The notes under the pieces were generated by a model that was given only the letters and a program-made list of their open reading frames with translations, was not told the DNA's origin and ran no database searches. From a virus, in IMG/VR virus record IMGVR_UViG_3300032893_000025, positions 1 to 64,000 of that record: a stretch of DNA of 64,000 nucleotides. One strand, written 5' to 3'. Of the stretch, positions 7,637 through 28,700 are shown in pieces. How positions within the stretch are numbered: the stretch's first letter is position 1; each line of letters begins with the position of its first letter. A program made the position numbers and the translations under genes.

Positions 7637-9169
7637 ATGATAATTGGAGAAAAATTAAAAAGGTTATTAGAAAATAACAAATCTAATAATATCTGCAAAC
7701 AATTTCTAAAGAAAGAAAAAGAAGATGAATGGATAAATGATATAGGGTATTTAGATATTGCTATAACCAATCCTAATAAAATAGGATATATATCAATAGA
7801 TAGAAAAGAAAGATTTGGTAAAAATGTTGAAAATTATATATCAGATAAGATTATAGATAAAATAGTACAACCAACAAAAGAGTATTGGGTAACTCATTAT
7901 GATCTAAGTATATATAGAACCTGGAAAGATAAAACATGGAGAGTGAGAAATGTTGATAATGAATATAAACAAATTAGATGTAGTTGTTTGGAAATAAATC
8001 AGGATTTAAATTTTAACTTATCAGATTTAAAACAAAGTTCTAATTTAATTAAAACTTATTGCGAAATAAAAGTAATTTATAACTTCTTTGATGAAACTTT
8101 AAGAAGTAAATTTGCATATATGACATCTCCTGGTAAATTGGTAAATAAATTAGAAATAACAGCTTCAAATAAAGAAGTACAAGAATTTGCTACTTTATTT
8201 TACCAAGATATTATAGGATTGGCTATAGATGGGTTACATTTTGAGTTAATGAATGGTGAAAGTATTAGAAAATATTATTATGAAGGATCATATTCAAGAA
8301 AAGGGGGTACACTTAATTCAAGTTGTATGCGACATGAACAATGCAAACCATTTATGGATATTTATGCAAAGAATGAAGAAAAAGTAAGTTTGCTGGTTTT
8401 ATTTAATAATCAAGATAAAGTTGAAGGTAGGGCATTAGTTTGGAAATGTAATAAAGAAGAAGATAAGGATGAAATAACTCTCATGGATAGAATATATGTG
8501 ACTAATGATAATTATGTAGAGTATTTTAGAACTTATGCTAAAAACAAAAAATGGCATTATAAATGGCAACAAGATGCTAGTTATAAAAAAGAAATAATTT
8601 GTCCTCCAGAATATACTAAAAAAACAATGGATTTATATGTAGACTTAAAAACAAAATTTAGTAGTTATCCTTATTTAGATACTTTCACGTATATGTCTGA
8701 AGATAGATTAAGAAATAATGGTAATTTTGAACACAGATATGAGTTATGCTCAATAGGGGGAGAACCAAGAATTGATGAAGAAGAACCAACAGTATTTTCA
8801 GAATATTATGATGAAGATATTCCAGAAGATGACGCTGTATATTCAAATTATCTGAGTAGTTGGATTTGGGATGATGAATCTTGTACTGTAACCATAAATG
8901 GAAGAAGTGATTATATGCCAACAGACCATGATGAAATATATTATGTGAAAGGTAATTATTATTTTAAAGACTATGTAATATTTTCTAAATGGGAAGATGA
9001 GTATATACCAAAAGAAGATTCAGTATTCTCTAATTATCATAATAGTTATATGTTAGAAAGAAAATGTACTTTCTATAATGAAGATTATATACATAGAGAT
9101 TATATTGATGAATACAAAGAATCAATAGAAGAAAAGAAAGAAGTAAAAGAAAGTGTTGGTAATGAGTAA
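7637..9169 (+). CDS. conserved phage protein (SCM...GRALVW...MDRIY...YPYLDT) with acidic/aromatic C-terminal repeats
   Basis: Motifs read directly in the translation; function unknown. Confidence 0.65.
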   Translation: MIIGEKLKRLLENNKSNNICKQFLKKEKEDEWINDIGYLDIAITNPNKIGYISIDRKERFGKNVENYISDKIIDKIVQPTKEYWVTHYDLSIYRTWKDKTWRVRNVDNEYKQIRCSCLEINQDLNFNLSDLKQSSNLIKTYCEIKVIYNFFDETLRSKFAYMTSPGKLVNKLEITASNKEVQEFATLFYQDIIGLAIDGLHFELMNGESIRKYYYEGSYSRKGGTLNSSCMRHEQCKPFMDIYAKNEEKVSLLVLFNNQDKVEGRALVWKCNKEEDKDEITLMDRIYVTNDNYVEYFRTYAKNKKWHYKWQQDASYKKEIICPPEYTKKTMDLYVDLKTKFSSYPYLDTFTYMSEDRLRNNGNFEHRYELCSIGGEPRIDEEEPTVFSEYYDEDIPEDDAVYSNYLSSWIWDDESCTVTINGRSDYMPTDHDEIYYVKGNYYFKDYVIFSKWEDEYIPKEDSVFSNYHNSYMLERKCTFYNEDYIHRDYIDEYKESIEEKKEVKESVGNE

Positions 9170-9962
9170 ACTATTATTAATAGATTCAGATTTTATACTA
9201 TACAAAATATGTTTTAATAGAGTTCTATCTGAAACAGAACAAATGTATGGTATAAAATCTGAAAAAACTTTGCAAGAAACTTTAGATTTAATAGATTGGT
9301 ACTTAGTAGAAAAAATATTTAAACCTACTAGTGCAGACTATTATTTAGGATTTCTGGGGGGGGATGGAAATTACAGATATTCTGTAGACTCCGCTTATAA
9401 AAGTGGAAGAAGTTCAGAAAAGCCCCCATTTTTCAAAGAAGTAAAACAATATCTTATAGATAAATGGGAGTTTATTATTGTAAACGGTATTGAAGCTGAA
9501 GATGCAGTTGGAATTTCTCTTACTACATACTCTGAATCTATAATTGTAGGGCAAGACCATGATTTACTTCAACTTCCAGGAACACATTATAATCCTGTAA
9601 AGAATGAAGTAATAGACTTGAGTATTCAAGATGCAGAGTATAATTTTTGGAAACAAATGATTACAGGCTGTTCTACAGATAAAGTATCTGGAATTCCAAG
9701 AATTGGAGAAATTAAAGCTACTAAATTTTTAGAGAAATTTTATAATAAAAATAATTCTGATATTATTGCTTCAAGTATTATATTTGCTCAAAAAGTATTA
9801 TGTTTATATATACAATTCTTTGGAGAATATAAAGGTATTCAAAAATTTGCAAAGAACCATCAACTTCTTAAGATTCTCAGAGAAAAAGAAGGATTTGTAA
9901 TTCCTGAAATAAAACCAGTTAATAAAATTAAAATAGTAGAACAAATAGTACCAGAATTTTAA
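9162..9962 (+). CDS. 5'-3' exonuclease / flap endonuclease (T5 D15 / T7 gp6-like)
   Basis: LLIDSD, YKSGR, EAEDAVG, DHDLLQLPG and helix-hairpin-helix TDKVSGIPRIGEIKA; ATG at 9162 preferred over the 9153 start. Confidence 0.85.
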   Translation: MSKLLLIDSDFILYKICFNRVLSETEQMYGIKSEKTLQETLDLIDWYLVEKIFKPTSADYYLGFLGGDGNYRYSVDSAYKSGRSSEKPPFFKEVKQYLIDKWEFIIVNGIEAEDAVGISLTTYSESIIVGQDHDLLQLPGTHYNPVKNEVIDLSIQDAEYNFWKQMITGCSTDKVSGIPRIGEIKATKFLEKFYNKNNSDIIASSIIFAQKVLCLYIQFFGEYKGIQKFAKNHQLLKILREKEGFVIPEIKPVNKIKIVEQIVPEF

Positions 9963-12778: not shown

Positions 12779-12976
12779 ATGGAACTTTGTCCTAATTGTT
12801 CAATAGAATTAATTCCAAATAAAAAGAAGTTAGGTAGTTGTTCTAAATGGTTAATTTGTAATAAATGTGGGTATAGAACAACTCCTACTTCTAATTATAC
12901 AAAGATAGAAGAAATGATAAAATTCGAAAATTATAAAGCAAGAGTAAATAATAATAATTTAATTGATGATGAGTAA
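12779..12976 (+). CDS. small zinc-ribbon protein
   Basis: CPNC...CNKC. Confidence 0.65.
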   Translation: MELCPNCSIELIPNKKKLGSCSKWLICNKCGYRTTPTSNYTKIEEMIKFENYKARVNNNNLIDDE

Positions 12977-13523
12977 AAATTACTATTTTACATCTGACTT
13001 ACATTTAGGACATACAAATATTCTAAAATATGATAATAGACCCTTTTCTAGTATAAGAGATCACGATAAAACCATTATTAATAATTGGAATAGTATTGTC
13101 AATGATGAAGATGATATATTCTTTCTTGGAGATTTTGCTTTAACCTATCCTAGTTATGCAGAAAATTTGATGTTACAATTACAAGGAAATAAATATTTCA
13201 TTAAAGGTAATCACGATAAAAAAGATATTCTTAAATTATATCAAAAGTATGGAACTTACTTAGGAGAGTTAAAAGAAATAGAAATTAATAATCAAAAGAT
13301 TGTATTATGTCATTATGCAATGTTGGTATGGAATAGATCTCATCACGGAACTTGGCACTTGCACGGACATTCTCATCATAGTTTACCAATTGATAAAAAT
13401 AGTTTAAGATTAGATGTAGGAATTAATGGATGGGATTATATACCAATTTCATTTGGAAAGGTAAAAGAAGAATTAAGTAGAAGAAAATTTAAATCAACAG
13501 ATCATCATGGAGAAAGAATATGA
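12963..13523 (+). CDS. calcineurin-like metallophosphoesterase
   Basis: SDLHLGH, LGDF, GNHD, CHY and HGHSH motifs. Confidence 0.9.
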   Translation: MMMSKNYYFTSDLHLGHTNILKYDNRPFSSIRDHDKTIINNWNSIVNDEDDIFFLGDFALTYPSYAENLMLQLQGNKYFIKGNHDKKDILKLYQKYGTYLGELKEIEINNQKIVLCHYAMLVWNRSHHGTWHLHGHSHHSLPIDKNSLRLDVGINGWDYIPISFGKVKEELSRRKFKSTDHHGERI

Positions 13524-13572: not shown

Positions 13573-14253
13573 ATGAAAATATTAATAGTAGGTGATGTAC
13601 ATGGAAGAAGTAATTGGGAAAATTGGATAGATGATTCTTATGATAAAATAATATTTGTTGGAGATTACGTAGATCATTGGACTATAAGTAATATGAGAAT
13701 TATTGAAAATCTTAATAACATCATATATTTTAAAAAAGATAATCCTAATAAAGTAATATTATTATTAGGCAATCACGATAACCAGTATATGTTTAGCTAC
13801 TCTTCTCATGGATGTAGTGGGTTTAGATCAGAATCTTACTTTGATTTACATGAACTATTCAACAAAGAAAAAGATTTGTTTCAAGCAGCCTACCAGATAG
13901 ATAATTATTTATTTACTCATGCTGGAGTATCCCAAGAATGGTTTGATAGAGAATACCCCTATAAACCTAAATTAAAAAATTTAGCTGAATCTTTTAATAC
14001 AGCATTTAAAATGAAAGAAAGAAGTTTATTTGATGTTGGATATTCAAGAGGAGGATTTCAAGGTGTAGGCGGAATATTTTGGGCTGATAGAAAAGAAACT
14101 CAATCAAATATGCTAATTGATATACATCAGGTTGTAGGGCATACTCATATAGATAAAATAACCACATATTATTTAAATAATGATACTAATTCTAATACAT
14201 CTATAACTTATACAGATTGTGAAAATAGTCCCTATATTTTAGAAATAAATTAA
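13573..14253 (+). CDS. calcineurin-like metallophosphoesterase
   Basis: GDVHG, GDYVD, GNHD, THAG and VGHT motifs. Confidence 0.9.
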   Translation: MKILIVGDVHGRSNWENWIDDSYDKIIFVGDYVDHWTISNMRIIENLNNIIYFKKDNPNKVILLLGNHDNQYMFSYSSHGCSGFRSESYFDLHELFNKEKDLFQAAYQIDNYLFTHAGVSQEWFDREYPYKPKLKNLAESFNTAFKMKERSLFDVGYSRGGFQGVGGIFWADRKETQSNMLIDIHQVVGHTHIDKITTYYLNNDTNSNTSITYTDCENSPYILEIN

Positions 14254-14270
14254 AAACAATTGAAAAATTA

Positions 14271-14302
14271 TTTGGAAGTAATAAAAATATTTTGTAAGTT
14301 TG
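14271..14302 (+). promoter_or_regulatory. Bacteroidota sigma-A-type promoter for tRNA array 1
   Basis: TTTG (14271-14274), 20-nt spacer, TAAGTTTG (14295-14302); matches the TTTG-N19-21-TAnnTTTG consensus. Confidence 0.8.
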
Positions 14303-14306
14303 TAAA

Positions 14307-14378
14307 ATGAATTTGATAATACGACATATAGAACAACCCCAAGAGCCAATAATTATTGGAAGGAAGAACTATATGTAA
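14307..14378 (+). CDS. leader peptide 1 (23 aa, MNLIIRHIEQPQEPIIIGRKNYM) of the tRNA-array attenuator
   Basis: ORF starts right after the promoter; codons 4-15 correspond only to the six downstream tRNAs; its 3' part is the antiterminator strand. Confidence 0.8.
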   Translation: MNLIIRHIEQPQEPIIIGRKNYM

Positions 14379-14430
14379 AAGATATGTTTTGATTTTGTTT
14401 TTAATTAGACAATACACCCCTTCCAGTAGT
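14352..14430 (+). promoter_or_regulatory. antiterminator helix of attenuator 1
   Basis: AUUAUUGGAAGG (14352-14363) pairs over 12 bp, two of them G-U, with CCUUCCAGUAGU (14419-14430), the 5' arm of the terminator. Confidence 0.75.
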
Positions 14431-14455
14431 GAATACTCGAAGGGGTTTTTATTTT
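14416..14455 (+). terminator. intrinsic terminator (attenuator) before tRNA array 1
   Basis: ACCCCTTC-C-AGTA-gtgaa-TACT-C-GAAGGGGT followed by TTTTATTTT, ending 2 nt before the first tRNA. Confidence 0.85.
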
Positions 14456-14457
14456 AA

Positions 14458-14528
14458 CGAGAGTGGGTTGTGGTGGTAGCATCCTGCACTTGGAATGCAG
14501 AGGGGTAGTTCAATTCTAACATTCTCGA
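14458..14528 (+). tRNA. tRNA-Pro(UGG)
   Basis: Acceptor CGAGAGT/ATTCTCG; anticodon arm CTGCA-CT TGG AA-TGCAG. Confidence 0.85.
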
Positions 14529-14535
14529 CAAATAT

Positions 14536-14607
14536 ACTCAGTTCTTCTAATGGTCAGGAAGGTTGTCTTATACACAACTAATTAAAGTTCAAGTCTTTAA
14601 CTGAGTA
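14536..14607 (+). tRNA. tRNA-Ile(UAU)
   Basis: Acceptor ACTCAGT/ACTGAGT, A73; GTTGT-CT TAT AC-ACAAC; T arm TAAAG-TTCAAGT-CTTTA. Confidence 0.85.
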
Positions 14608-14615
14608 CAATATAT

Positions 14616-14687
14616 GGTGTTTGAAGCATTAATGTGATGTGCTTGACTGTGAATCAAGAGAAGATGGGTCAGTACCATCCTTACACC
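14616..14687 (+). tRNA. tRNA-His(GUG)
   Basis: G-1:C73 pair; CTTGA-CT GTG AA-TCAAG. Confidence 0.85.
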
Positions 14688-14692
14688 CAAAT

Positions 14693-14764
14693 GCTACGTT
14701 CGGCAAGTGGTAAGCCACCAGACCTTCAATCTGGTTATCGTGGGTTCGAAACCCACACGTAGTA
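14693..14764 (+). tRNA. tRNA-Glu(UUC)
   Basis: Acceptor GCTACGT/ACGTAGT; CCAGA-CC TTC AA-TCTGG; GTGGG-TTCGAAA-CCCAC. Confidence 0.88.
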
Positions 14765-14770
14765 CTAAAT

Positions 14771-14843
14771 TGGGATTTAGTGTAAATGGAAACCACACAA
14801 GACTTTGACTCTTGTAATGTAGGATCATACCCTACAGTCCCAA
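14771..14843 (+). tRNA. tRNA-Gln(UUG)
   Basis: Acceptor TGGGATT/AGTCCCA; CAAGA-CT TTG AC-TCTTG. Confidence 0.88.
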
Positions 14844-14848
14844 CTAAT

Positions 14849-14923
14849 AGGAATATAGCTTAATTGAATCAAAGCCCTTGTCTACGAAACAAGAGAGTAT
14901 GGGTTTGAGTCCCATTATTCCTA
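14849..14923 (+). tRNA. tRNA-Arg(ACG)
   Basis: Acceptor AGGAATA/TATTCCT; CTTGT-CT ACG AA-ACAAG. Confidence 0.88.
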
Positions 14924-14961
14924 CAAAGTTAAAAAATACTTTAAAAATAAATACTAAAATA

Positions 14962-14993
14962 TTTGGATGTAATAATAAAATTTATTATATTTG
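14962..14993 (+). promoter_or_regulatory. Bacteroidota sigma-A-type promoter for tRNA array 2
   Basis: TTTG (14962-14965), 20-nt spacer, TATATTTG (14986-14993). Confidence 0.8.
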
Positions 14994-15010
14994 TAGAATA
15001 AAATTAAACA

Positions 15011-15091
15011 ATGCAAAGAAGAAATTGGAATATGGTAGCCATTAATGACGGTAAAACAGGAGTTTACTGGAAGGGGAAATTATATTCTTAA
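15011..15091 (+). CDS. leader peptide 2 (26 aa, MQRRNWNMVAINDGKTGVYWKGKLYS) of the tRNA-array attenuator
   Basis: Codons 3-18 cover exactly the 11 amino acids of the downstream tRNAs; codons 20-27 form the antiterminator strand. Confidence 0.8.
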   Translation: MQRRNWNMVAINDGKTGVYWKGKLYS

Positions 15092-15120
15092 TTTAAATAA
15101 GAAATTATAAGTGCCCTTCC
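15069..15120 (+). promoter_or_regulatory. antiterminator hairpin of attenuator 2
   Basis: GGAAGGG (15069-15075)/CCCTTCC (15114-15120), with nested TTATA/TATAA and TTCTTA/TAAGAA helices. Confidence 0.75.
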
Positions 15121-15143
15121 CAAAAAGAAGGGTTTTTTATTTT
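15113..15143 (+). terminator. intrinsic terminator (attenuator) before tRNA array 2
   Basis: GCCCTTC-ccaaaaa-GAAGGGT followed by TTTTTATTTT. Confidence 0.85.
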
Positions 15144-15147
15144 ATAT

Positions 15148-15219
15148 TGGTTAATAACTCAATGGTAGAGTACTTCTCTGATACAGAAGAGGCTGTAGGT
15201 TCAAGTCCTACTTAACCAA
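15148..15219 (+). tRNA. tRNA-Ile(GAU)
   Basis: Acceptor TGGTTAA/TTAACCA; CTTCT-CT GAT AC-AGAAG. Confidence 0.88.
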
Positions 15220-15225
15220 CAATAT

Positions 15226-15294
15226 TGCGGGTAGTTCTGGTGAACCCCTAGTCTCATAAGCTAGTCAAGAAGAGATCGTAACTCTTACCCGCAA
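15226..15294 (+). tRNA. tRNA-Met(CAU); elongator versus initiator uncertain
   Basis: Acceptor TGCGGGT/ACCCGCA; CTAGT-CT CAT AA-GCTAG; short D arm; lacks the three G-C anticodon-stem pairs of initiators. Confidence 0.75.
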
Positions 15295-15301
15295 CTAATA
15301 A

Positions 15302-15374
15302 GGGAGTGAAGCTAAAGTGGGATAGCTGTGGCCTGTTAAGCCAAGGGGTGTAGGATCATTGCCTACCTCTCCCG
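15302..15374 (+). tRNA. tRNA-Asn(GUU)
   Basis: Acceptor GGGAGTG/CTCTCCC, G73; TGGC-CT GTT AA-GCCA. Confidence 0.85.
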
Positions 15375-15384
15375 CAGTACAAAT

Positions 15385-15456
15385 GAATCATTGGTGTAAT
15401 GGATAGCACAGGGGTCTTCTAAGCCCTTAGAAAGAGTTCAAATCTTTTATGATTCG
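15385..15456 (+). tRNA. tRNA-Arg(UCU)
   Basis: Acceptor GAATCAT/ATGATTC; GGGGT-CT TCT AA-GCCCT. Confidence 0.88.
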
Positions 15457-15466
15457 CTAAATACAT

Positions 15467-15536
15467 TGAGGCACTCATAGGAGTGATAAGCAATCTCCAA
15501 AATTGTGACTTATAGGTTCGAGTCCTGTTGCCTCTG
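15467..15536 (+). tRNA. tRNA-Trp(CCA)
   Basis: GAGGCA/TGCCTC acceptor, G73; GCAAT-CT CCA AA-ATTGT; ATAGG-TTCGAGT-CCTGT. Confidence 0.82.
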
Positions 15537-15541
15537 CTAAT

Positions 15542-15616
15542 GGTTTTGTAGGCCTCTTGGTGAGGAGCTTGACTGTCACTCAAGCAGAATAGAGGGATCG
15601 TACCCCTCCAGAACCG
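15542..15616 (+). tRNA. tRNA-Asp(GUC)
   Basis: Acceptor GGTTTTG/CAGAACC, G73; CTTGA-CT GTC AC-TCAAG. Confidence 0.85.
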
Positions 15617-15622
15617 CGATAT

Positions 15623-15694
15623 GGGCCACTAGCATAAAGGATAATGCTCCTTACTTGCAATGAGGAAGATAGAGTTCGAGTCTCTGTGTGTCCA
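15623..15694 (+). tRNA. tRNA-Ala(UGC)
   Basis: G3:U70 alanine identity pair; CCTTA-CT TGC AA-TGAGG; irregular lower acceptor stem. Confidence 0.82.
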
Positions 15695-15764
15695 CTAATT
15701 CTTTATCTTTGATAGGAAATCCGTAAAGGTCTCAAATACTGAACCAGTTAATCAGTATTTAAAT

Positions 15765-15836
15765 GCAGATATAGCACAATGGCTAGTGCGTCTGGCTTCC
15801 ACCCAGAGGATGTGGTTTCAATTACCACTATCTGCT
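15765..15836 (+). tRNA. tRNA-Gly(UCC)
   Basis: Acceptor GCAGATA/TATCTGC, U73; TCTGG-CT TCC AC-CCAGA. Confidence 0.9.
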
Positions 15837-15841
15837 CTAAT

Positions 15842-15913
15842 GCACCTTTAGTATAATGGTTATTATTTTTCCTTTGTAACGAGAAGATGAGGATTCAATT
15901 TCTTCAAGGTGCT
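15842..15913 (+). tRNA. tRNA-Thr(UGU)
   Basis: Acceptor GCACCTT/AAGGTGC; TTTCC-TT TGT AA-CGAGA with a C31:C39 mismatch. Confidence 0.78.
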
Positions 15914-15917
15914 CTAT

Positions 15918-15988
15918 GACTCTTTAGCAAAGCGGATATGCTCCACTCTTTTAAAGTGGCGGGAATGGTTCAACTCCATTAAGAGTCA
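15918..15988 (+). tRNA. tRNA-Lys(UUU)
   Basis: Acceptor GACTCTT/AAGAGTC; CCACT-CT TTT AA-AGTGG. Confidence 0.88.
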
Positions 15989-15994
15989 CAAAAT

Positions 15995-16070
15995 ACTTCC
16001 TTAGCTCAGTTGGTTTAGTAGCACTTGTTTTACACACAAGATGTCAAAGGTTCGAATCCTTTAGGAAGTA
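15995..16070 (+). tRNA. tRNA-Val(UAC)
   Basis: Acceptor ACTTCCT/AGGAAGT; CTTGT-TT TAC AC-ACAAG; AAAGG-TTCGAAT-CCTTT. Confidence 0.92.
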
Positions 16071-16090
16071 CAAAAAATTTGTGTCTCAGA

Positions 16091-19000
16091 TTATTTATTT
16101 ATTATCTGTTGTGTCAATGACTGAATTCTTGCAGTAGTATTAGTTAAAGGAAACCAATTCTTTATAGCTACCCAAGTTTTAGATTGATCCTTATAAATTC
16201 CTTGATGATACATATCATCCCCTCCTGTTATTAATGTTGTAGCTCTTGCTAGTACTTTTTCTGTATCAGTAATTACTTTAGCCATTGGTAAAGGATCTCT
16301 TAATATAGTTTTAAATTGAATAGGATCAATATAAAAATCTATATCCATCTGCATCCTATTAAGTTGATTAATCCAGAAGAAAGATAAATATTTTATATCA
16401 GATTCATCATCGTCATCATTTAAAATGACTCCTTTAATTAATAAAGCCAATGCTGTAACAGCTATCATAGACATTATTTCTGTTAAATTAGCTCTCATAT
16501 TAGCAGCATCTACATCATCTAATCTAGACAAATTAGTTTTCTGAAAAGCTATTTTTCTTAGTAACTGTAATGTACCGTTAAATACCCCACCAAAGTAGCC
16601 ATATCTATCAAAAAACTGCCCATAACTTCTCCATCTACCTTTCTGTTCAATACCACTAATAGGATTCACCTTACCAGCGTCCATTTGTCCAAGTCTTGTA
16701 TAATATGCATTAATCATCCATTTTCTAAATACTAATAAGGATCTTCCTAATATTGTTGAATTAGCAGGTATTGGAGAGTCTGGATCATAGTTACCATGAA
16801 TATCTTTTATAACCTTATCTATCTTTAATTTAGTATTTGCCTCTAAATTTGATGGCATTTCAACTCCATTTAATAATTCTCCATTATCATTATAAGCTTC
16901 AAATAAAGATATATCTTTTCCATTTAATTTAACTTTAGTGTTTAATAACATAGCTATCATTACAGGAGCCTGATTTAAATATTCAGATCTACTCTGTAAT
17001 GTAAAGGGAGCTAACCAATTAATTCCTTTTTTAACTCTTTCAGATACATATATTTCATTTTGTAGTTCTTTTAGAGTATCATATCTATCCATTAAATGTC
17101 TAACTTTATTCATTTGAGATAAGGTTAAGTTATACCCTTTATGAAGCTGAGCATTATTAAATCTTCTACCATCAGAGCCTTCTATAAGATTATTAACATA
17201 GCCCACTGTGGAATTCATTATAGGGGAGAAAAAATTCCATCCTAATCCCTTTAATCTAACCCACATATTAAGTTGGTCTCCAATTTTAGAACCTGCTTTT
17301 ACTCCTCCTAATTCAGATAATTGCTTTTCTAATTTTCTATCTATTTGTAGAAATTCTTTCTTAGTTATGTTATGTTCATCAAAATCTTTTATGTTTTGAG
17401 CCTTTAAAGCCTCTATTTCTTCTCTTACTTTTTGCTCTTTGGATGTATATACTTTTTTTCCAAATTTTAATTCTACCTTATGCATAGCTTCTCCATAAAA
17501 CTTCTTCATAAAATATTCTACAGAATCTTTAAAGTTATTCAATCCTTTCTTAGAGATAGGATCTCCATATTGGTCATTTATAACTTCACCAGCATTATTA
17601 GTTTCTTGTTCTAAAGCATTATTAATAATACCCTGAGTAATACTCATAGCATCCTCAATTTTAGCTTTATGTTTAAACCCAATAGCCATTAATGAATAAG
17701 CTTTTACTAGTTTTTCTAAATCATTACTTCTTTCATTAGCAACCTGATCTTTAATTTCTCTAGTCCATTCTTGTATTTGTTCTACAGTTGGAGTATTTCC
17801 AGTTTGTTGTTTAAGTTCTAAAGACTTTCTGAATATATAATCTTTAATTATTTTATCAATATTGGTTATATATCTTACTCTTAACTCTCTTTCTCTCTCA
17901 CCTTCAACATCTCTTTTTTCACTAGATTCTGTAGTTACAGATCCTTTAGTTCTTATACTTTCTTTCCATAAATCCCATATAGGAGTTAACCCACCACTCA
18001 TACCATTTTGGGTATACTGTTCTATTAAAGTCTTTTCCATAAAAGGAAGAGTATTAACCTGAAACTCTTCGGTCATATCTGATGGTAAATAAGAATTTAC
18101 TTCATGTAGAGTATCTATGATATAGTTATATAAAGCTAATAGCTTATCATTGTTTTCTATTTTTTCAAAGTTTTTATCATAAAATTCAGTATTCTTGCCA
18201 TTAACAATTCTTCTAGGTACAGTCTTTGTATATCTATTGCTTGGGGTTATATAATCTCCTGCTACTTTTTGTATAGTACCTTCAAAAAAGTTTTCTGCAA
18301 CTAAATAAGGACTAAATTTAGCATCATATTCTCTTATTTTTATTTCCTTAGCAGCATCTTCTAGTAAATCATCGTCTAATTGAGATATAAAAACATCTCT
18401 ATCATCTTTAAATTGTTTAAGTTGCTTTTCAGCAGCTTCTAAATAAAATTTATATCCTTTTTGTCCCAAATTAGTTATTAATTCTTGTCTGTGATTCTGT
18501 ATATCACTATCACTAAAGCTATTTTCATATAAATCCTTATTGGGAAACAATTTTCTAGCATCTAACATTAGAGAGTATTTCTTAGTTTCCGTAATATAAT
18601 CTCTAATAAGTTTATTTTTTTGTTTTCTTCTTTCTTCTGGGTCAGCAATTTCATCAGCAAGGTTTAATTCTTTTTTAAAATTTCTGCTTCTAGCTTTATT
18701 CCAATCGAAATAAGCTTGGGTATATCTATAAGTTAAATCTCCAGTTTTCCTATTATCTGTATTACTTGCTCTTTGAGCAAACAATTCATTAATATCCTTT
18801 TTACTATAAGATTTACCTATTTCTTTAAATACATCATCTAAACCATCAAATACATACTTAGCTTCTTTATGTGTTTCAAAGCTTGCTTCCTTATTCCATA
18901 CAAACATACTTTTAGCTAAGATATTATCTGTTTCACTAATATCTAAAGTAAGACTTGTTAATTTACCAACATCTGTTAGTAAAGCTTTATAATCAACATT

Positions 19001-19707: not shown

Positions 19708-22700
19708 TTACCTACATTTTTTCATTCTATCAAGTATTTCTTCATTAGAAATTAAACTTATTTTATCTTTTAAATTTAACTCTCTCTGATCTAACTTGAT
19801 ATAATAATATTCTTTTTTATTATTTAATCCTATATCTTCTCCTACAGTTGTTCCTATAGTAGCTTTATATAAGACTTGTTCTTTATTAATAGTTTGTGCC
19901 CTTTTAAGCATTGCTTTATATCTATCACCGTTGCTAAATCTATCATCAACCATTAATACTTTTTGCCTACCATCAGAGTTTAATTCTCCGAATCTATTTA
20001 AAGTATCTTCTTTACTTATTGTATTAGGTAATAAATATACTTCTCTATCAGTTATTTTAGATAAATCTATCTCTCTCCATTGATTACCATATTCATCATT
20101 AATAATTTTAACATTGTCTTTACCAAATTGTTTCTCTAATATATTACCTACTTTAATTTCATAGAAAGCTTCAATAGGTTTGAGTTTTTCTATACCTTGA
20201 GATTTAAATTCAGCTTTTTTATCTTCTAGTCTTTTTATTTCACTAGGAGCTTCTTTTATTTCCCCAATTTTTTGATTTCTAACTGATATTTTATGTTCAA
20301 GAGCAATTACTTTTTGCCTATCTTCAACTAAATATCTGTCACTATTAGAAGAATTATTAAATATTGCAATAGCTTCCTCTCTGGTGATTGGTAATATTTT
20401 AATTTGAGGTTTATTTCTTTCTGTATTATATCCATGTATATAATACCCTTCATAATTTTCACCTAATGCATCTCTATGCTCTTGGTATGAATCATAACCA
20501 AAATAGGATTTATTATATATTTCTTTTCTACTATAAGTACTTTCTACTCTAACATAACTATAATCTTCAAATCCATATTTATTTGCAGTTTTTCTATCTA
20601 CAGTTGGTTCTTGAGTTGTTAAATTGGAACTAAAAGTCTTTTTTAAAGTAGTTATTTCTTTACGAAGATTGTTTATCTCTTCTTCTAATCCTGGTATAGA
20701 ATCTTCCTTACCTAAAAATGTTTGTGTATGTTCTATAGCTCTATTTATATTTAATATCTCATTGGCCAATGTTTCGTGTCCTTCTACTTTAGCAGCAGTT
20801 TCACCTTTAGGAAATAATACTTTCTCATATCCTTTCTTAGCACTATCTTGAATAATAGATTTAATAAAGAATGTAACCCAGTTATTATCTTTGTTAAGGA
20901 GTTGGAGAAATTGATTTTCTGGACTATTATCAGAAACAAAGTTCCATCTTTCTTTACCGGTTAAAGATTTATAATCTCTACCTTTCTGAAATAAATCAGA
21001 TTGTATTTCTAATATACGTCTATCTTTAGTTATATTCCCACCAATAGTATTTCTTTTAGTTCTAGGTTCACCTGTAGATAAATCTGGTTCCTCATCAGTA
21101 GTAATAGTAGCATTGTTTACTTTAGTATCACTTCTAAACCAACCTATACCTTTATCTGTACTAAATTGAGCATGCCCTTTAATATTAGGTGTAATTAATG
21201 GAGTAGATATTTCATTTTCAGTATAGTTAGTACCGCCCGGTACTGTTAGATTTGAATAATAAGATGTAGATTGTTGATTCTTATATCTCTTAGATTCTAA
21301 GTAAGTTTCAGCTTCTTTTCTTGTATTAAAAGAAATATAAGCTCCATCATCTTCTTCAACAATATACTCAGTTTTTATAATTTTCCCTTCTTTATCTTTA
21401 AAATGCGATTCTTCTATGTTTCCAGTAAGAGAATCAAACTTTTTCTTAGCAGTATTAACTTCAACAGTATAACTATAATTAGCAAGAATAGAAGATATAA
21501 TTTCTTCTTTGGTCATTCCATCTTTAGCAGATTCTTTGAACATATCAACCTGTTCTTTAGGAACTCCTTGTTTCTGAAGATCGTTTAACCAACCTTGTAA
21601 TTTAGAAAATTCAAATTTATTACGTTGAATATTTTGTAAGCCTTTTATCAATTTTAAAGTATAACTAATAGCAGCTTCGTTAATTCCAGGATATAATGTT
21701 TCTATTGTCTGGCCTTCTTGTGTGAAAGCTTGAGTAGTATCATGTTCAATAATAGTTAATACATCATCTATAGCGGAAGCTAACATAGAGTTTTTATTTA
21801 CATTTAATCCTAAAGCATTAAAGAATTGTTTTAATTTATCTAAAAATACTTCAAACCAAGGTTTGCCTTCACTATTCGCAGGTATTTCATTAAGTATCTT
21901 CTGAAACTCACCATCAGTCATTAACATAGTTACAAATTCTTCTAAATTTGTAGCTCCATAATATTTACTTAATTCTTCATCAGTCATAGATTCATACTTC
22001 TCAGTTCTTTTAGCTATAAACTTATCCATAACTTCTTTAGTAATGGATGATTTATGCCTATTAAAACTTTGATTTAAGCTATCTATAGCATCTTTAACTT
22101 TAGGATCTAGTTTTTCTCCTTTACTCCAAGCTTGAATAGCAGGTATAGTAAATCCATGCAATACTTCATGTAATACAGTTTTACTTAATTCATTTACTGA
22201 AGTATGTTTTTCATTATCTAAATTAATTTTTACAGTACCATTAGCATATCTTCCTCTTACTTTTTCAAGTTCTGTAGATAATCTTAAATTTCTATCTCCG
22301 TAATTATTTAATAGTTCAGACGCTAATAATTGATAATATTGGTCATCTGAATTAATAACTATATTTTCAAGTACCCTTTTAACATTACCTTTATCAACTA
22401 TTTCAAGTATATCTCCAGGTTTCTTAACTTTAGTAGATTCTGGATTAATTGTAGTTTCTGAATAGTAGTTGTTATCTATTGGAAATCTTGAAGTAGATTT
22501 ACTAACTTCAGCTTTATTTGTGTTAGTTATAAAACTTGAAGTAGCTACTTCATCAGTATTAGCATTAAATTCATCTATACCGTTAAATCCTAAATTATCT
22601 ACTCTAAAATACATAGGGTAACCTAAAGAATCATTTCTTCCATAATATCTAAATAATACATTCTTACTACTTCCTTTAGGTTTCATAGGATCATTAATAG

Positions 22701-25700
22701 CTAAAAATTCAGGAGGAACTTGGTCTTGCCCTCTTTTAACATAGAAATCATCATTCTTTAAACTAAATCTTGTAATACTAACTCTTCCTTTTGGTAAGTT
22801 TTTATCCTTAATTACATTATCTATATCCTTTGTTCCAACTCTTTCAACCTTATCAGCATTATGTTGTATATACTGTTCGATAAAGTTCTGTAACATCCAG
22901 TAAGGTAATTCAAATGAAGGAATCTTCATAAAATCTGAATCTTCGAATTTCTTATTAGAGTATAATTCAGATAAACTATCAGCAAATCCTATAGAATATA
23001 AATAAGATGGCGGTATGTGTTTAATATATTGAGTAGCTTCTTGTACACCCCCAGACAAATAAGCTGCTTCAACTAAGTCTTTGAATAACTTTCTTGTAGT
23101 GTAATTAGTTCCTTCAATAGCAGTATCATTCGTATATAAATCTATAAAAGAAGTATATGTAGCTAAATTAGCAGCGTCATCTCTTACAGCATCTATTTTA
23201 ATTGTAGATGGTCTACCATTCTTATTTATATCAGGTTGTACTTTACTTAAAAAAGGATGATCTTTATATTTAGATTGAGCTTTTACTTGTTTAACTATAG
23301 AAGCTAAAGATTTATTACTGTCGCTATCTATAAATAATCTTTCTCTTTCTAAATTAAGATCTCCTCCAAATAATCCTAAATTATTTAATGTATACAAATA
23401 AGATTTAAAATTATTCCATATATCTCTTCTAAAATCAGCTTTACTAACTATACTTCTGTCTTCTCTACCAAGTAATTGTTCAATCTTGTTAAACATGTAA
23501 GTTATACCTTGTTCATTATAAGGTAGAAGTTGTTTCCACAGTTTATTATTTTGAAGTAACCCATAATATGTAGAAAAACCTTGGATTGTTGTTGGTTTAA
23601 TTAAATTTCCTAAATTATCAAATTCTCCCAATATAGATTCTATATTTTCTATATTCACACTTTGTAATCTTTTAACTGCTTCTTCTTTAGATAAAGTTTC
23701 AAATAAATTCTTACCCAATCCTTTACTATCTGTATTAATAGCTGATTGTATAGTACTTAAGGTTTGAGATGGTTTATCTAAATAAAGCATTTGATCTAAA
23801 GCAGTCAATTGTATATAATTAAAGTCTCCTGTTGGTTCTAATATAGAATTCTTTAAATTCTCTAAAGACAATCCTTTTCCTTTACTATATTTTTCATCAT
23901 ATAAATTACTATCATAATTTGTAGGTCTATATTTAGATAATATTTCTGAATATACTTCATTTTCTATATTAGGATTAAACTCTTTAATAGAAGATCTTTT
24001 AGATTTAAGTAAATTAAAGTAATCTTTTATAATAGGTTGAGCCATAAAATATCCGACTTCTTCTTCAAATCCTAATTGTGCTAGTAAGTTAGCATACCTA
24101 AAAGTTTGAGAATTTAAATTAAGTTTATCTAATACTTGTAACTTTTCATTGTCTACAGATACAGACTGAAGACCTGATATAATTTCTGATTTATAATACT
24201 TACCACTTAATGTTTTATTTCCACTTAAATCTCCATCAGATACTTTGTTACCAAATCTAACTCTAAATCTTTGTTTAATTCCTTCTGGAGTATTATAGAA
24301 TAAATACATTCCTTTATCCTGTATAGCAGAATTAAACATAGATGCATTACTTGTTATACCAGTACCAGATTTACCAGCTAATGCATTAAATCTCTTAGTC
24401 ATTTGGTACTTATCTGATAAGGCAGTGAAGTATTCATCTTTAGTCTTTTTATTCTGAATTTCTTTAGCTATTTCTTCGAACTTCCATGAACTTAAAGGAG
24501 TGTGTATTTGTTTTTGAACTTCTTGATTAATGTTTTTATGAACTGCAAGTCTTATATCTAATAGTTTGTTTTGTAGAGATTTGTTCCATACATCATCAGC
24601 CATTTCTAAGAATGATGCTTGTCTATTAAGTTGTCTACTTTTTCTTTCATCAAGTTCAAAAGCTAAATTTCTTAAAGTAGATTCTTCTAATTTTAATATA
24701 TCTTCCTTAGAACTAAAATCTATCTTTTCTAACTTTTTACCATTAAGGTAAGTATTATACATATAGGTGTATAACTTATCCACATCAAAGTCAGAACCCA
24801 TCTGAGCCAAGTAATCTCTTGTAGTAACAGCTATATCCCCAGATGTTTTAGGTAAAAATCCTACTATTTCAACATAACTTTGAGAGTTTAATCCTTGATT
24901 AGGAATACGCATACCAAAGATTTGCAATATTTCTTCAGGTAATTTAGTCATATCTATTTTCCCATCTTTCACAAACCTATTTATATCTAATAAATTTCCA
25001 TTATTATCTTTAAATTTCCAAGGTATTAGTATTTGTGCTGGTAATACCTTACCTTTTTCTACTCGAGATGGTAATAATTTACCTGTCCATTTATCTGTAT
25101 AAATAATTCCTTGAATATCTTTAGAAGCTTCTTCATCTACAACTTTAGCTTTTTGGTATCCTTCCTCTGTAGATAATACAAAAGAATTACCTTTAAACTT
25201 CATTTTTAGTACTCTATTCTTAACAATAGCGTTAAGTAAAGCTTCATATTTAATAGCTGAAGGACTATAAGGTAAGAAAGTTAAATACTTATCCAATTCT
25301 ATACCTTCCATATCAGCTATAGAATACCCTCTTAACATACCTTCTTCCTTAAGAATATCTCTTATTGCAGGTATATTTAAATTTCCAGACTCATCATAAA
25401 CTTCTTTTTTTAAACCTTCAAATCCATTCTTATAAAGTTGTTCATAATGTTCTTGATAAATCTTTTCTAAATCTCTTCCTTTGTAAGAATTATTATTATA
25501 TTCAAATCCATCTATATCATGTAAATTAGTAAATATATTCTTATCAGCCTGAGAAACCCTATTAATAGCATCTTTAAGTTCATCATAGGGAACATCTTGT
25601 TGCAATCTAAATCCTTTTCTACTAAGTATTTTAGTTGAATTATTTATCTCTTCAGGTGTTAATTCTTTTATATTATTATCAGAATCCCATAATTTAACAG

Positions 25701-28700
25701 GAGTTTTATAATTTCCTGCTTTAATACCTGATGAAAAAGCTAATCTTTGAATATTATTCTTTTCCATCATTATTCTAATCTTATCTAAATCATTACCTTT
25801 AGTAAGTTCAGGGGTTAGCGGATAAGCAGATGTTTTAATGTAAATTCTTTCTCTTATACCAAGTTGTTGATTAAACTGATTATTTACATATACAGGTTTA
25901 TGTACTTGATACACTAAATTTTCCCATTCTTTATTTCCACTTAATTCTTTATTTAGTGCTGAAGTATAGTAATAATCACCCTGGGATATTTTTTTCTTAA
26001 TAAATTTAGTTGCTGCTTTGTACAAATCTTCACTAATATTTCCAGATTTAAATTCTACATATAACCATTCGGGGAATGTAGTCCATTCTTGCGCATTTGT
26101 ACCTTCTTTTAAAGTTCCTGTAGCAAGATAGTCCTTTGCTCCATCTTTTCCTAAAAGTTCTTGTAGTTGGTCTATATTTAAAGAATTTATAGCCCTATCA
26201 TCTACCATTAATTGTCTGTAAAAACCTTTATTACTATCAGCTATTTCAGTACCAGGAGCTATATCAGCAGCTAATCTCTTACCTACATTAATAAAAGTAT
26301 CTTCTACTTGAGATAATATATTTGTTGCTTTTGATTTGTAAAATAAAGCAGGATCTCCAACAATACTCATAAAAGTATTAGCATTACCTATTAGATACTG
26401 ATAAACCATATCTGTAGCAATAGCTTTATTGTAGTTTTCTTTAGCTACTCCAAGTAATACTTTTTTATCTTGTAATACAGTAGTATCTATAAAGTTTGAT
26501 TTATCTCCGTCTATAATACCATAAGAATTCCAATCAGTTAATTTTTCATTAACTAACTTATCTACATACTCTTTTATAGTATCCTTTAAAGTTGTATTCC
26601 ATTTATCAGAGAATATATCAGAGTTTAAATTATCATTGGAATCCCAAATATCTTTTAACTCGTTTAATTTTGGAAGTAGTAAAAATTTATGCCCACCTTG
26701 TTCAAATTCTTTATTATTAAATTCTACACCAGATTTCTTCAGTTCTTCCCATTTTCTTATTCTATTTATTTCAGGTAATACTAATTGGTCATATAAAAAA
26801 TCTATACTATTATCTTTTAAATTTCCATCAGTAGTAAAATTAATAGGGGCTGCAATAGTTTTAATTGTCATTGCAGTAGTTTTATCTGATGTAGTAGGAT
26901 ACAATAGTATTATAACTCTACTATCAGTACCAGAATTATCAGGTATAGATCCTGTTAGTAATCCTAACGAAGTTAATTCATACTCATCAGGATTAAGATT
27001 ATATAATTCTCTTCCATCCCTTGTTTTAGTACCTATTTTTTTAAAGGCTTCTAACCCTATAGTTCCAGCTTCAAAATTAGAATTAAACACATAGTTTCCT
27101 TCTCCTATATTATTTAACCACCAACTTTTCTTTTCAAATGGACTATTAGAATCAAGTATTTCTTTAGCTAAACCATTTTTAAGATCTCTTACAGTGTTGA
27201 TTAAGTATTTATTTTTTCCAAAACTATAAATACTTTTACCGCCACTTCTAAAAGCATTGCTAAATACAGCGTTGTCATTATACTTAGCGTCCATTCTGGC
27301 TAAACTCTTTATAACACTTTCGTCTAAAATATTATGTTCATCTAATGATAATTTACCTTGAGTAGTTAGTGCTTTATTTAATACATTAAATACAAAGTAA
27401 TTATCTAATAATAATTTATCAAATTTAACAGTATAAGGTGCTCCAAATCTATCAGTTCTTTGTATACCTTTAGACACTAATTCATTCCAAGTTTGATTAT
27501 TAATACCAATACCAAATTCTTCTAACCATTTTCTTGCATCATCAGTATTTTTAGATTCTTTTATCTTTTCATATCTATCTTTTAATTCTTTAACTTTATT
27601 TTCATCTAATATATATTGTCCTTCATTGTTAACTTTAAATAATCCTGTTTCTTTAACATTAGTATTCCAGTTATCAAGTACTGCATTATATATAGAATTC
27701 TCATTAACCAAAATAGTCTTTGTAGAATATTTTTTGGTTTCTTTATCCTGTGACCACATTACCATATAATGTTTTATCTGGTGATTAGTCATAGATGTTA
27801 CAAAACCATTTTTTTCCTGTTCTTTAGATGATTCTAATTTAGTAATAACTTGTTCTACCCAAGGATGTGCTTTAGTATATTGTCTTAATACATCTGTAAT
27901 TTGGTTAAAATCTGGTTCTAATCCAGCAGTCCAAGTTTGAAGTTTTTCATAAACTTCATTAAAATCCATTACTTCAGCTTCTTTAAGAATACCATATACA
28001 GGATTCCCAGAAGAATCTACTTTATTAATATCTGAAAAAAATCTCTTAACTTGTTGGGTTAAACTATCTTTAAGGTTGTGTTCGTAACTATTTTTATCCC
28101 AATCAGTTTTTTCATTATCTTTAGTTTCAGATATTTCCATATCTTCACCTTCAGGTAATGGAGTAACTATTCCTTCAATCTTATTAACTTTATAAATAAC
28201 AGATCTCTCTATTACATTCCATTTATCTATAATGGGTTTAAAAAATTGATCTCTATACTTAATTTGTATAGGCTCTAATTCATTATCAGAATATTTATTA
28301 AGTTCTGATAAATCATCTTCAAATTGAGTTTTATATTTATTTAAATAATCATTTCTAAGCTTTACAATATCTTGAGTAGGATTGTTGTATAAGTCTCTAA
28401 TTATATTTCTTGTAATATGATTAGTAATAGATTCTTGTTTATAAGCTCCTAACTCACTAATTAAAAGTTTATCTGAAGACTTCTGCATTAAAGACTCATC
28501 CCCAACAGTAGTTGGTAAATCAAAAGCACTTTCATTGAGATTGGTCTTAAGTTTTAACTTATTTTTCGTCTCAATTTTAGTAGATTTTTCAGACGAAACT
28601 TTAGTTTTCTTTTCTTCTATTTCTGGTGTTACTTCCTTACCTAATATATTACTATAATCTACTCTTACTACAGACTGTACTGCATAGATTCTTTTACCAT

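Follow-up and report, generated by a model that had tools for sequence, protein, structure and literature searches.

Candidate leader-peptide attenuators ahead of the tRNA arrays of a crAss-like phage

Introduction

What switches on the transfer RNA (tRNA) genes of a phage? The reasons why phages carry such genes are debated, i.e., codon compensation, survival of host tRNA degradation, and evasion of anticodon nucleases, and to our knowledge it is largely unknown how and when they are expressed. Here, we consider this question for a locus in the first 64 kb of the IMG/VR virus record IMGVR_UViG_3300032893_000025 (79,335 bp in total); this 64-kb stretch, which we analyzed as a whole, is called the window below. 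The locus contains two tRNA arrays, each preceded by a short open reading frame (ORF) and an intrinsic terminator. An earlier note made from the sequence alone (the original prediction) had read the two units as attenuators, with leader peptides whose codons list the tRNAs encoded directly downstream. Our analysis supports this reading: each unit is most likely a ribosome-mediated (leader-peptide) transcription attenuator controlling a phage tRNA operon. Every part that could be computed held, namely the codon match, the abutting terminator, the antiterminator strand, and the covariation between leaders and tRNA content.

Results

Leader codons and tRNA content

The two units lie on the plus strand and share one order of elements: a promoter-like motif, a short ORF starting with ATG, a GC hairpin with a U-run, and the tRNA genes. 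In unit 1, the motif TTTG-N20-TAAGTTTG (14271–14302), a putative promoter of the Bacteroidota sigma-A type, is followed by leader ORF 1 (14307–14378; 23 codons plus stop), intrinsic terminator 1 (14417–14455; an 11-pair hairpin at 14417–14445 and then TTTTTATTTT, −15.2 kcal/mol), and array 1 (14458–14924). Unit 2 repeats this layout with the similar motif TTTG-N20-TATATTTG (14962–14993), located 17 nucleotides (nt) upstream of the ATG, leader ORF 2 (15011–15091; 26 codons plus stop), intrinsic terminator 2 (15113–15143; a hairpin at 15113–15133 and then TTTTTTATTTT), and array 2 (15148–16071). Motifs of the TTTG/TAnnTTTG type are those of Bacteroides and Flavobacterium promoters. Six matches to TTTG-N20-TAnnTTTG were counted in the window compared to 4.2 expected, and two of these six stand precisely ahead of the two leaders. 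The observation of two leader/terminator/tRNA units is confirmed, in that all elements of the architecture claimed to be shared (promoter motif, ORF, antiterminator, terminator, and tRNAs) were found in both.

The terminators leave little space before the tRNAs. Their U-runs end 4–5 nt upstream of the first tRNA gene (tRNA-Pro and tRNA-Ile, respectively), and a hairpin with a U-run abuts the first tRNA in five of five units when those of a related phage, described below, are included. The terminator expected before each array is present as a GC hairpin and U-run directly against it, with the promoter-sized gap absent. Since a promoter cannot fit between the U-run and the tRNA, read-through would be the sole transcription route for the arrays.

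The codons of each leader match the tRNAs downstream. Array 1 encodes Pro(TGG), Ile(TAT), His(GTG), Glu(TTC), Gln(TTG), and Arg(ACG), as detected by ARAGORN and Rfam, and codons 4–17 of leader 1 (I I R H I E Q P Q E P I I I) specify solely Ile, Arg, His, Glu, Gln, and Pro; all six array-1 amino acids are represented and none other occurs in this 14-codon run, though the six account for only 25% of the phage proteome. Array 2, detected with the same two programs, encodes Ile(GAT), Met(CAT), Asn(GTT), Arg(TCT), Trp(CCA), Asp(GTC), and Ala(TGC), then, after a 71-nt spacer, Gly(TCC), Tyr(GTA), Lys(TTT), and Val(TAC). Leader 2 covers 11 of these 11 amino acids, with 21 of its 25 residues within the set; codons 3–15 and 17–23 all specify array-2 amino acids. 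Across all six frames, the window has 300 ATG-initiated ORFs of 15–45 codons; of these, leader 1 contains by far the longest run of array-1 amino acids (14; the runner-up reaches 8) and leader 2 is the only one covering all 11 array-2 amino acids. These results bear out the originally claimed matches of 6 of 6 and 11 of 11. The further claim, that no other amino acid occurs in the central codons, stood for leader 1 and fell for leader 2, which is interrupted by a threonine codon at position 16 (Thr16).

We assessed the match against genome codon usage with a codon-level Monte Carlo procedure, in which codons were drawn from the codon usage of the phage, wobble rules were applied, and P was the chance of reaching or exceeding the observed count of cognate codons while also attaining the observed coverage of tRNAs. 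The match exceeded chance in both units, with P = 7e-6 for unit 1 and, for unit 2, 1e-3 under strict wobble or 5e-5 if U34 is allowed to read whole family boxes. When leaders and arrays were swapped, scores were at or under expectation. The match extends to isoacceptors. CGA makes up 1% of the Arg codons of the phage, yet it is the Arg codon of leader 1, which precedes tRNA-Arg(ACG), and AGA AGA occurs in leader 2, which precedes tRNA-Arg(TCT). Likewise, four ATA codons stand ahead of Ile(TAT) and one ATT codon stands ahead of Ile(GAT).

Two further observations concern these sequences. Codons 18–23 of leader 1 (G R K N Y M; GGA AGG AAG AAC TAT ATG) specify amino acids of array 2 throughout, also at the level of codons; this tail spelling may reflect chance, a by-product of the GGAAGG antiterminator word described below, or cross-talk between the units. 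In addition, the tRNA-Arg(ACG) gene (14849–14924) is carried though CGN codons make up approximately 7%, and CGA 1%, of phage Arg codons, which hints, without proving anything, that codon compensation alone accounts poorly for this tRNA.

Detection of the tRNA genes

Three of the 17 tRNAs required relaxed detection. With default settings, ARAGORN found 14 tRNAs; Rfam added His(GTG) at 14617–14687 (32.6 bits) and relaxed ARAGORN added Met(CAT) at 15226–15295 and Trp(CCA) at 15467–15537. Both of the latter form complete cloverleaves with short D arms, and each fills a gap of exactly tRNA size. The leaders are hence useful for annotation, having predicted the His, Met, and Trp tRNAs that default detection missed.

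The 71-nt spacer of array 2 (15695–15764), between tRNA-Ala and tRNA-Gly, lacks a tRNA-like fold. It contains a 9-bp hairpin (AATACTGAA...TCAGTATT) and the word TATCTTTG at 15704–15711, and may be an internal promoter or a processing site. We also considered whether the spacer is a decayed tRNA-Thr and rejected this, as it had no detectable similarity to tRNA-Thr genes. Given that no decayed tRNA-Thr is recognizable there, Thr16 of leader 2 is left unexplained.

Covariation of leaders and arrays in relatives

Relatives were identified using a degenerate DNA pattern back-translated from an invariant 11-residue motif of the protein of 1198 amino acids (aa) encoded beside the arrays. This pattern recovered five IMG/VR records and 14 metagenome contigs. 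Other routes were less productive: exact-peptide and alignment searches with the 1198-aa protein against IMG/VR returned nothing useful; the major capsid protein led to relatives on short contigs from which tRNAs were absent; and a DNA pattern built from the antiterminator and terminator words of the window matched one chance site only.

One record, G003 (99,795 bp, rated complete), encodes a neighbor protein 38% identical to that of the window and 24 tRNAs. Its region L041 (G003:C1:11500-23000) contains three units of the same design, again with a hairpin and U-run abutting the first tRNA. Unit a has a 20-codon leader with the core L H L L P E E P and encodes tRNAs for Pro, Glu, His, Leu(TAA), and Leu(TAG) (set PEHL). 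Unit b has a 25-codon leader with the core R F R Y T K Y S S C K G T S S and encodes Thr, Lys, Arg(ACG), Phe, Gly, Tyr, Cys, Ser(TGA), Arg(TCT), and Ser(GCT) (set TKRFGYCS). Unit c has a 26-codon leader with the core V I N I W N Q I D V D Q A I and encodes Val, Ala, Asn, Met, Trp, Asp, Ile, Gln, and Met (set VANMWDIQ). Isoacceptors are again reflected: leader b contains both CGA and AGA, and both TCA and AGT, and its array has both Arg and both Ser isoacceptors. A search pattern derived from the core of the c-type leader refound G003 alone.

The grouping of tRNAs in G003 differs from that in the window, and the leaders differ accordingly. Across the five units of the window and G003, the coverage of a leader's own set is 100% in every case, and the uninterrupted runs measure 14, 13, 8, 15, and 14 codons. 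Own-set z-scores were between 2.6 and 4.6, off-diagonal scores were mostly negative, and the true pairing of leaders and arrays ranked first of 120 permutations. The original prediction had named leaders unrelated to the tRNA content of homologous arrays as an outcome that would count against it; the opposite was seen, in that the leaders of G003, and of the dissimilar contig L099 described below, track their tRNAs.

Orthologs of unit c in G003, L054, and L057 allow the constraint on a single leader to be followed. The frame and stop codon are kept in three of three. Within the 14-codon core, all amino acid replacements (V/N, V/A, D/I, I/D, and I/N) remain within VANMWDIQ, and synonymous changes (AAC/AAT, CAA/CAG, and GTT/GTA) also occur, while residues outside the set appear freely downstream of the core. 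In L054, a change from CCC to CCTC in the 5' arm of the terminator is matched by a change from CAGGG to CAGAGG in the ORF, such that the antiterminator pairing is kept. This pattern of substitutions points to a core constrained in its composition and a tail constrained by RNA pairing, as is predicted for a leader that lists tRNAs and not for a functional peptide.

Protein ORFs also interrupt the putatively gated tRNA groups of G003, ending 1 nt upstream of the tRNA that follows (L041 4531-5025, 5261-5392, and 5965-6183). By their position within these groups, such ORFs would be co-regulated by the same attenuators.

Antiterminator pairing and predicted RNA folding

An antiterminator strand was found at the 3' end of the ORF in both units, as had been claimed, with complementarity above that of shuffled sequences. 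In unit 1, the strand ATTATTGGAAGG (14352–14363; codons 16–19) pairs with 14420–14431, i.e., with the 5' arm and loop of the terminator, in a duplex of −18.6 kcal/mol (P = 0.0015 compared to shuffles). In unit 2, the strand TGGAAGGGG (15068–15076; codons 20–22) pairs with CCCTTCC at 15114–15120. In every unit of the window and G003, the 5' arm of the terminator can pair with the 3' part of the ORF (−13.7 to −18.6 kcal/mol), better than with shuffled ORFs (P = 0.0015–0.054 per unit), and this complementarity is specific to the 5' arm rather than to other regions.

We modeled the switch in units 1 and 2 at equilibrium by partition-function folding with a 31-nt mask in place of the ribosome. Unit 2 is predicted to fold into a 1:2 hairpin and the terminator when the ribosome is absent. 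With the ribosomal A site at codons 3–16, the antiterminator is predicted to prevail, the probability of the terminator being less than 0.04 from codon 4, and from codon 17 onward the terminator is predicted to form. Unit 2 thus displays, in the model, classic four-segment attenuator behavior even at equilibrium. Folding of the free RNA of unit 1 predicts the antiterminator, with a terminator probability (Pterm) of 0.18.

At equilibrium, the predicted fold does not switch for stalls beyond codon 7 in unit 1 or in the G003 units, which means that the decision there would have to be kinetic, as in trp. We therefore applied a kinetic pre-emption model, in which only the RNA existing before the 3' arm of the terminator was folded. 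In this model, stalls in the core would leave the 5' arm sequestered with probabilities of 0.7–1.0, and a ribosome near the end of the ORF would free it, lowering these values to as little as 0.01–0.45. The predicted switch points of the five units fall at codons 15/16, 16/17, 12/13, 16/17, and 17/18, near the ends of the runs of listed codons. We infer from these models a kinetic competition between antiterminator and terminator.

Control arrays and a second lineage

Leaders combining full coverage with a long run (roster leaders) were absent from IAS virus and from approximately 30 arrays of other phages sharing the tRNA-Ile(TAT) arm. AT-rich spacers as such therefore do not account for the signal, nor do all Crassvirales share the design.

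We then searched IMG/VR for the architecture only, i.e., for GG, T6AT, 7–12 nt, and a tRNA D-arm word. This search returned contig L099 (IMGVR_UViG_3300021963_006995), which contains two roster leaders with terminators on the minus strand (9715–9807 and 7778–7888); no protein similarity to the window was detectable in the 13 kb examined. One of its leaders has the core L P L H S T L L S S S R R P, with an array of Ser, Thr, Ser, Leu, Arg, His, Pro, Ser, Met, and Leu tRNAs. The other is rich in N, Q, Y, M, E, and D, with an array of Asn, Met, Glu, Tyr, Gln, and Asp tRNAs. Own-set z-scores were 3.5 and 4.9, cross scores were negative, and each ORF tail contains an exact 7–8 nt complement of the 5' arm of the terminator.

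A further family (L088, positions 2600–2870; L105; and L108) has a sigma-70-like promoter, a GGAG ribosome-binding site, a 42-codon ORF, and a hairpin with U-run abutting the first tRNA. The ORF covers eight of eight array amino acids (Asn, Ile, His, Arg, Pro, Cys, Tyr, and Leu). We did not count this family, suggestive but weak, as support, since z was approximately 2 and no clear antiterminator was seen; the case made here draws on the window, on G003 with its relatives, and on L099.

Discussion

Proposed mechanism

We infer leader translation, read-through, and feedback to operate as follows. RNA polymerase would start at the promoter and a ribosome would translate the short ORF, the first two thirds of which provide one or a few codons for each tRNA downstream. 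If all codons are read quickly, the ribosome would reach the 3' end of the ORF and cover the antiterminator strand; the hairpin and U-run would then form, and transcription would stop 4–5 nt before the first tRNA, yielding a transcript of approximately 140–150 nt. Slow decoding of any listed codon would stall the ribosome upstream, leaving the antiterminator strand free to pair with the emerging 5' arm of the terminator, and the whole array would be read through. RNase P and other enzymes would release the tRNAs. As the products are the very tRNAs tested, each unit would amount to an OR gate with multiple inputs, the output of which feeds back negatively on the aminoacyl-tRNA pool.

A codon might be decoded slowly if the host supplies little of a tRNA, if the tRNA is cleaved or degraded during infection, or if the tRNA is uncharged. 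In nature, stalls may be caused by a mismatch between the host tRNA pool and AT-rich phage codons, by starvation, by anticodon-nuclease defense, or by host tRNA degradation. Anticodon nucleases are possible as one of several such causes, and the sequence does not single them out. More speculatively, phages of several mutually dissimilar lineages might carry a modular, rewritable sensor of the tRNA pool that detects any listed loss, including cleavage of the PrrC, RloC, VapC-like, or PARIS type, and responds with nuclease-resistant replacements transcribed within seconds and shut off by feedback. The leader would then also be a readable annotation of the tRNAs that the host threatens or lacks. 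We put this extension forward tentatively and regard it as doubtful.

Several observations weigh against attenuation of the tRNA arrays. At the level of codons, Thr16 of leader 2 has no matching tRNA, Ile(TAT) does not read the ATT ATT that closes the leader 1 run, and the GCC codon of leader 2 requires extended wobble and is not strictly cognate; the six bases of ATT ATT lie within the antiterminator strand. Most amino acids occur only once or twice per leader, a low multiplicity for which a response less sensitive than that of the codon runs of his and leu is expected. The Met(CAT) and Trp(CCA) tRNAs score under default thresholds. At the level of transcription, the -7 box of motif 1 ends 4 nt upstream of the leader 1 ATG, such that a transcript starting from this motif would be leaderless. 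The listed runs contain no RNA run with the attenuator region, only wetland DNA runs having matched. With respect to folding, the equilibrium model of unit 1 predicts the terminator for stalls beyond codon 7, that of the G003 units always favors it, and the kinetic model is itself an assumption.

Alternative explanations

It could be argued that the design is a coincidence, with untranslated ORFs that are chance frames, hairpins that are ordinary upstream terminators or processing stems, and tRNAs transcribed from other promoters. Short ORFs are indeed common in AT-rich DNA, as the 300 ORFs of 15–45 codons in the window attest, the promoter motif is not enriched across the whole window, and the runs matching the region are DNA only. 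Chance is nonetheless highly improbable: per-unit P values range from 1e-3 to 1e-6, the pairing over five units ranks first of 120, the orthologs retain both frame and compositional constraint, space for another promoter is absent between U-run and tRNA, unrelated arrays lack such ORFs, and the dissimilar contig L099 repeats the design.

If the leaders are translated, their output could still be something other than termination, such as stability or processing of the precursor through RNase protection, an effect on Rho, or a peptide or RNA acting in trans. The equilibrium folds that fail to switch (unit 1 beyond codon 7 and the G003 units) are compatible with this view, and leader peptides and attenuator RNAs can act in trans according to published work on peTrpL and rnTrpL. 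We consider it unlikely, given that every unit has a canonical GC hairpin with U-run, that the 3' part of the ORF is complementary specifically to the 5' arm of the terminator, and that one compensatory change keeps this pairing; a peptide acting in trans is further disfavored by the conservation of composition alone and not of peptide sequence. A last possibility is that the leaders serve mainly as a timer or gauge of general translation capacity rather than as a codon-by-codon tRNA sensor, switching the arrays on when ribosomes are scarce or globally slow, as in early infection or after host shut-off, and off when translation proceeds well. Lack of translation alone would open array 1, for which the untranslated RNA is predicted to be antiterminated (Pterm 0.18), and single codons per amino acid would confer weak specificity. 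Conversely, untranslated unit 2 is predicted to terminate, and an exact list of amino acids that reaches down to isoacceptors and changes with array content would be needless for a general gauge, making this explanation quite unlikely.

Comparison with known systems

The units would work like leader-peptide attenuators and lie outside every described family of these. In common with that class, they have a leader ORF between a promoter-like motif and a terminator, matching regulatory codons, and a terminator before the first gene; in silico, they also have a mutually exclusive antiterminator, fully at equilibrium in unit 2 and partially in unit 1. A cmscan search of 14000–16300 (E ≤ 1) gave no match to the curated Rfam leader families (Trp, His, Leu, Thr, and similar) or to the T-box covariance model, the hits being tRNAs and chance matches only. 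We found no published account of leader-peptide attenuation of phage tRNA arrays in the full-text literature, a scope outside which most subscription journals fall, and we know of no described attenuator in which the regulated genes are tRNAs.

There is a close likeness to the enterobacterial leaders. As in thr (Thr and Ile), ilvGMEDA (Leu, Val, and Ile), trpL, hisL, leuL, and pheL, a short leader ORF with regulatory codons is followed by a Rho-independent terminator before the first gene; the antiterminator shares the 5' arm of the terminator and would be covered by a ribosome that has reached the ORF end, and the predicted attenuated transcript is approximately 140–150 nt long. More than one amino acid would be sensed, as in thr and ilvGMEDA. 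However, the enterobacterial leaders regulate biosynthetic enzymes, whereas the phage units would regulate tRNAs, a product that would feed back directly on the signal. The codon runs of the former are also of one to three kinds, compared to 4–11 amino acids, mostly with one to three codons each, in the phage leaders. The aminoacyl-tRNA synthetase operon pheST of Escherichia coli is under a leader-peptide attenuator with Phe codons; it resembles the phage units in the attenuation of a component of the decoding apparatus and in feedback through charged tRNA, but it is cellular, senses one amino acid, and has a protein-coding target.

Other systems respond to similar signals by different means. 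T-box elements also switch between terminator and antiterminator upon shortage of a specific charged tRNA, but they bind the uncharged tRNA directly via a specifier codon, require no ribosome or ORF, and sense one tRNA per element. In Mycobacterium tuberculosis, cleavage of tRNA-Cys by VapC4 reportedly causes ribosome stalling in small upstream ORFs with Cys codons and thereby switches on the downstream genes, as Barth et al. are said to have described in PNAS in 2021. That system is a precedent for the readout of tRNase cleavage as stalling in small upstream ORFs; it differs in being a host stress response to a single amino acid with protein-coding targets rather than replacement tRNAs. The trn operon of Anabaena sp. 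PCC 7120, a silent array of 26 tRNAs and the nearest published example of accessory tRNA genes expressed conditionally, is induced under translational stress (PMC8421152; PMC10272220), and so resembles the phage units, as proposed here, in being an accessory tRNA array that is off until translation is impaired. Its control differs, in that it depends on direct repeats in the promoter and on the repressor TrcR, is cellular, and lacks codon specificity; the trn papers mention no leader, attenuator, or terminator (PMC8421152; PMC10272220). The phage units, built from an ORF and a terminator, do not belong to this repressor-controlled class.

If the units function as proposed, they would be the first known attenuators with tRNA products and direct feedback on the sensed quantity, and the broadest multi-input attenuators known, with up to 11 amino acids. 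As the leader states what is monitored, the debate on phage tRNAs would gain a regulatory handle, and synthetic biology a compact, programmable sensor of decoding speed.

Genome context and neighboring genes

The phage of the window is crAss-like. Its major capsid protein matches the crAss-type family phrog_11589 and is approximately 32% identical to the proteins of Cellulophaga phage phi14:2 and gut crAss-like phages. DNA of the window was present in two wetland metagenome runs, the contigs of which are identical with zero variants.

The region of attenuators and tRNAs is flanked by two metallophosphoesterase genes on the plus strand and the gene of the 1198-aa protein on the minus strand. 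The two metallophosphoesterase genes, of the calcineurin-like type, lie directly upstream of the first attenuator (12963–13523 and 13573–14253); one had a weak PHROG match to the phosphatase domain of RNA-ligase proteins, and a link to the healing of tRNA ends is only a guess. The 1198-aa protein lacks Pfam domains and has hardly any homologs, only one of them close (P0002). Farther downstream, a 4442-aa ORF (19708–33036, minus strand) stands beside ORFs of 1198, 649, 804, and 1241 aa, a cluster that we take to be the giant-protein block typical of crAss-like phages. In each case (L041, L054, L057, and the window at 16091), the tRNA region adjoins the 3' end of the homolog of the 1198-aa gene.

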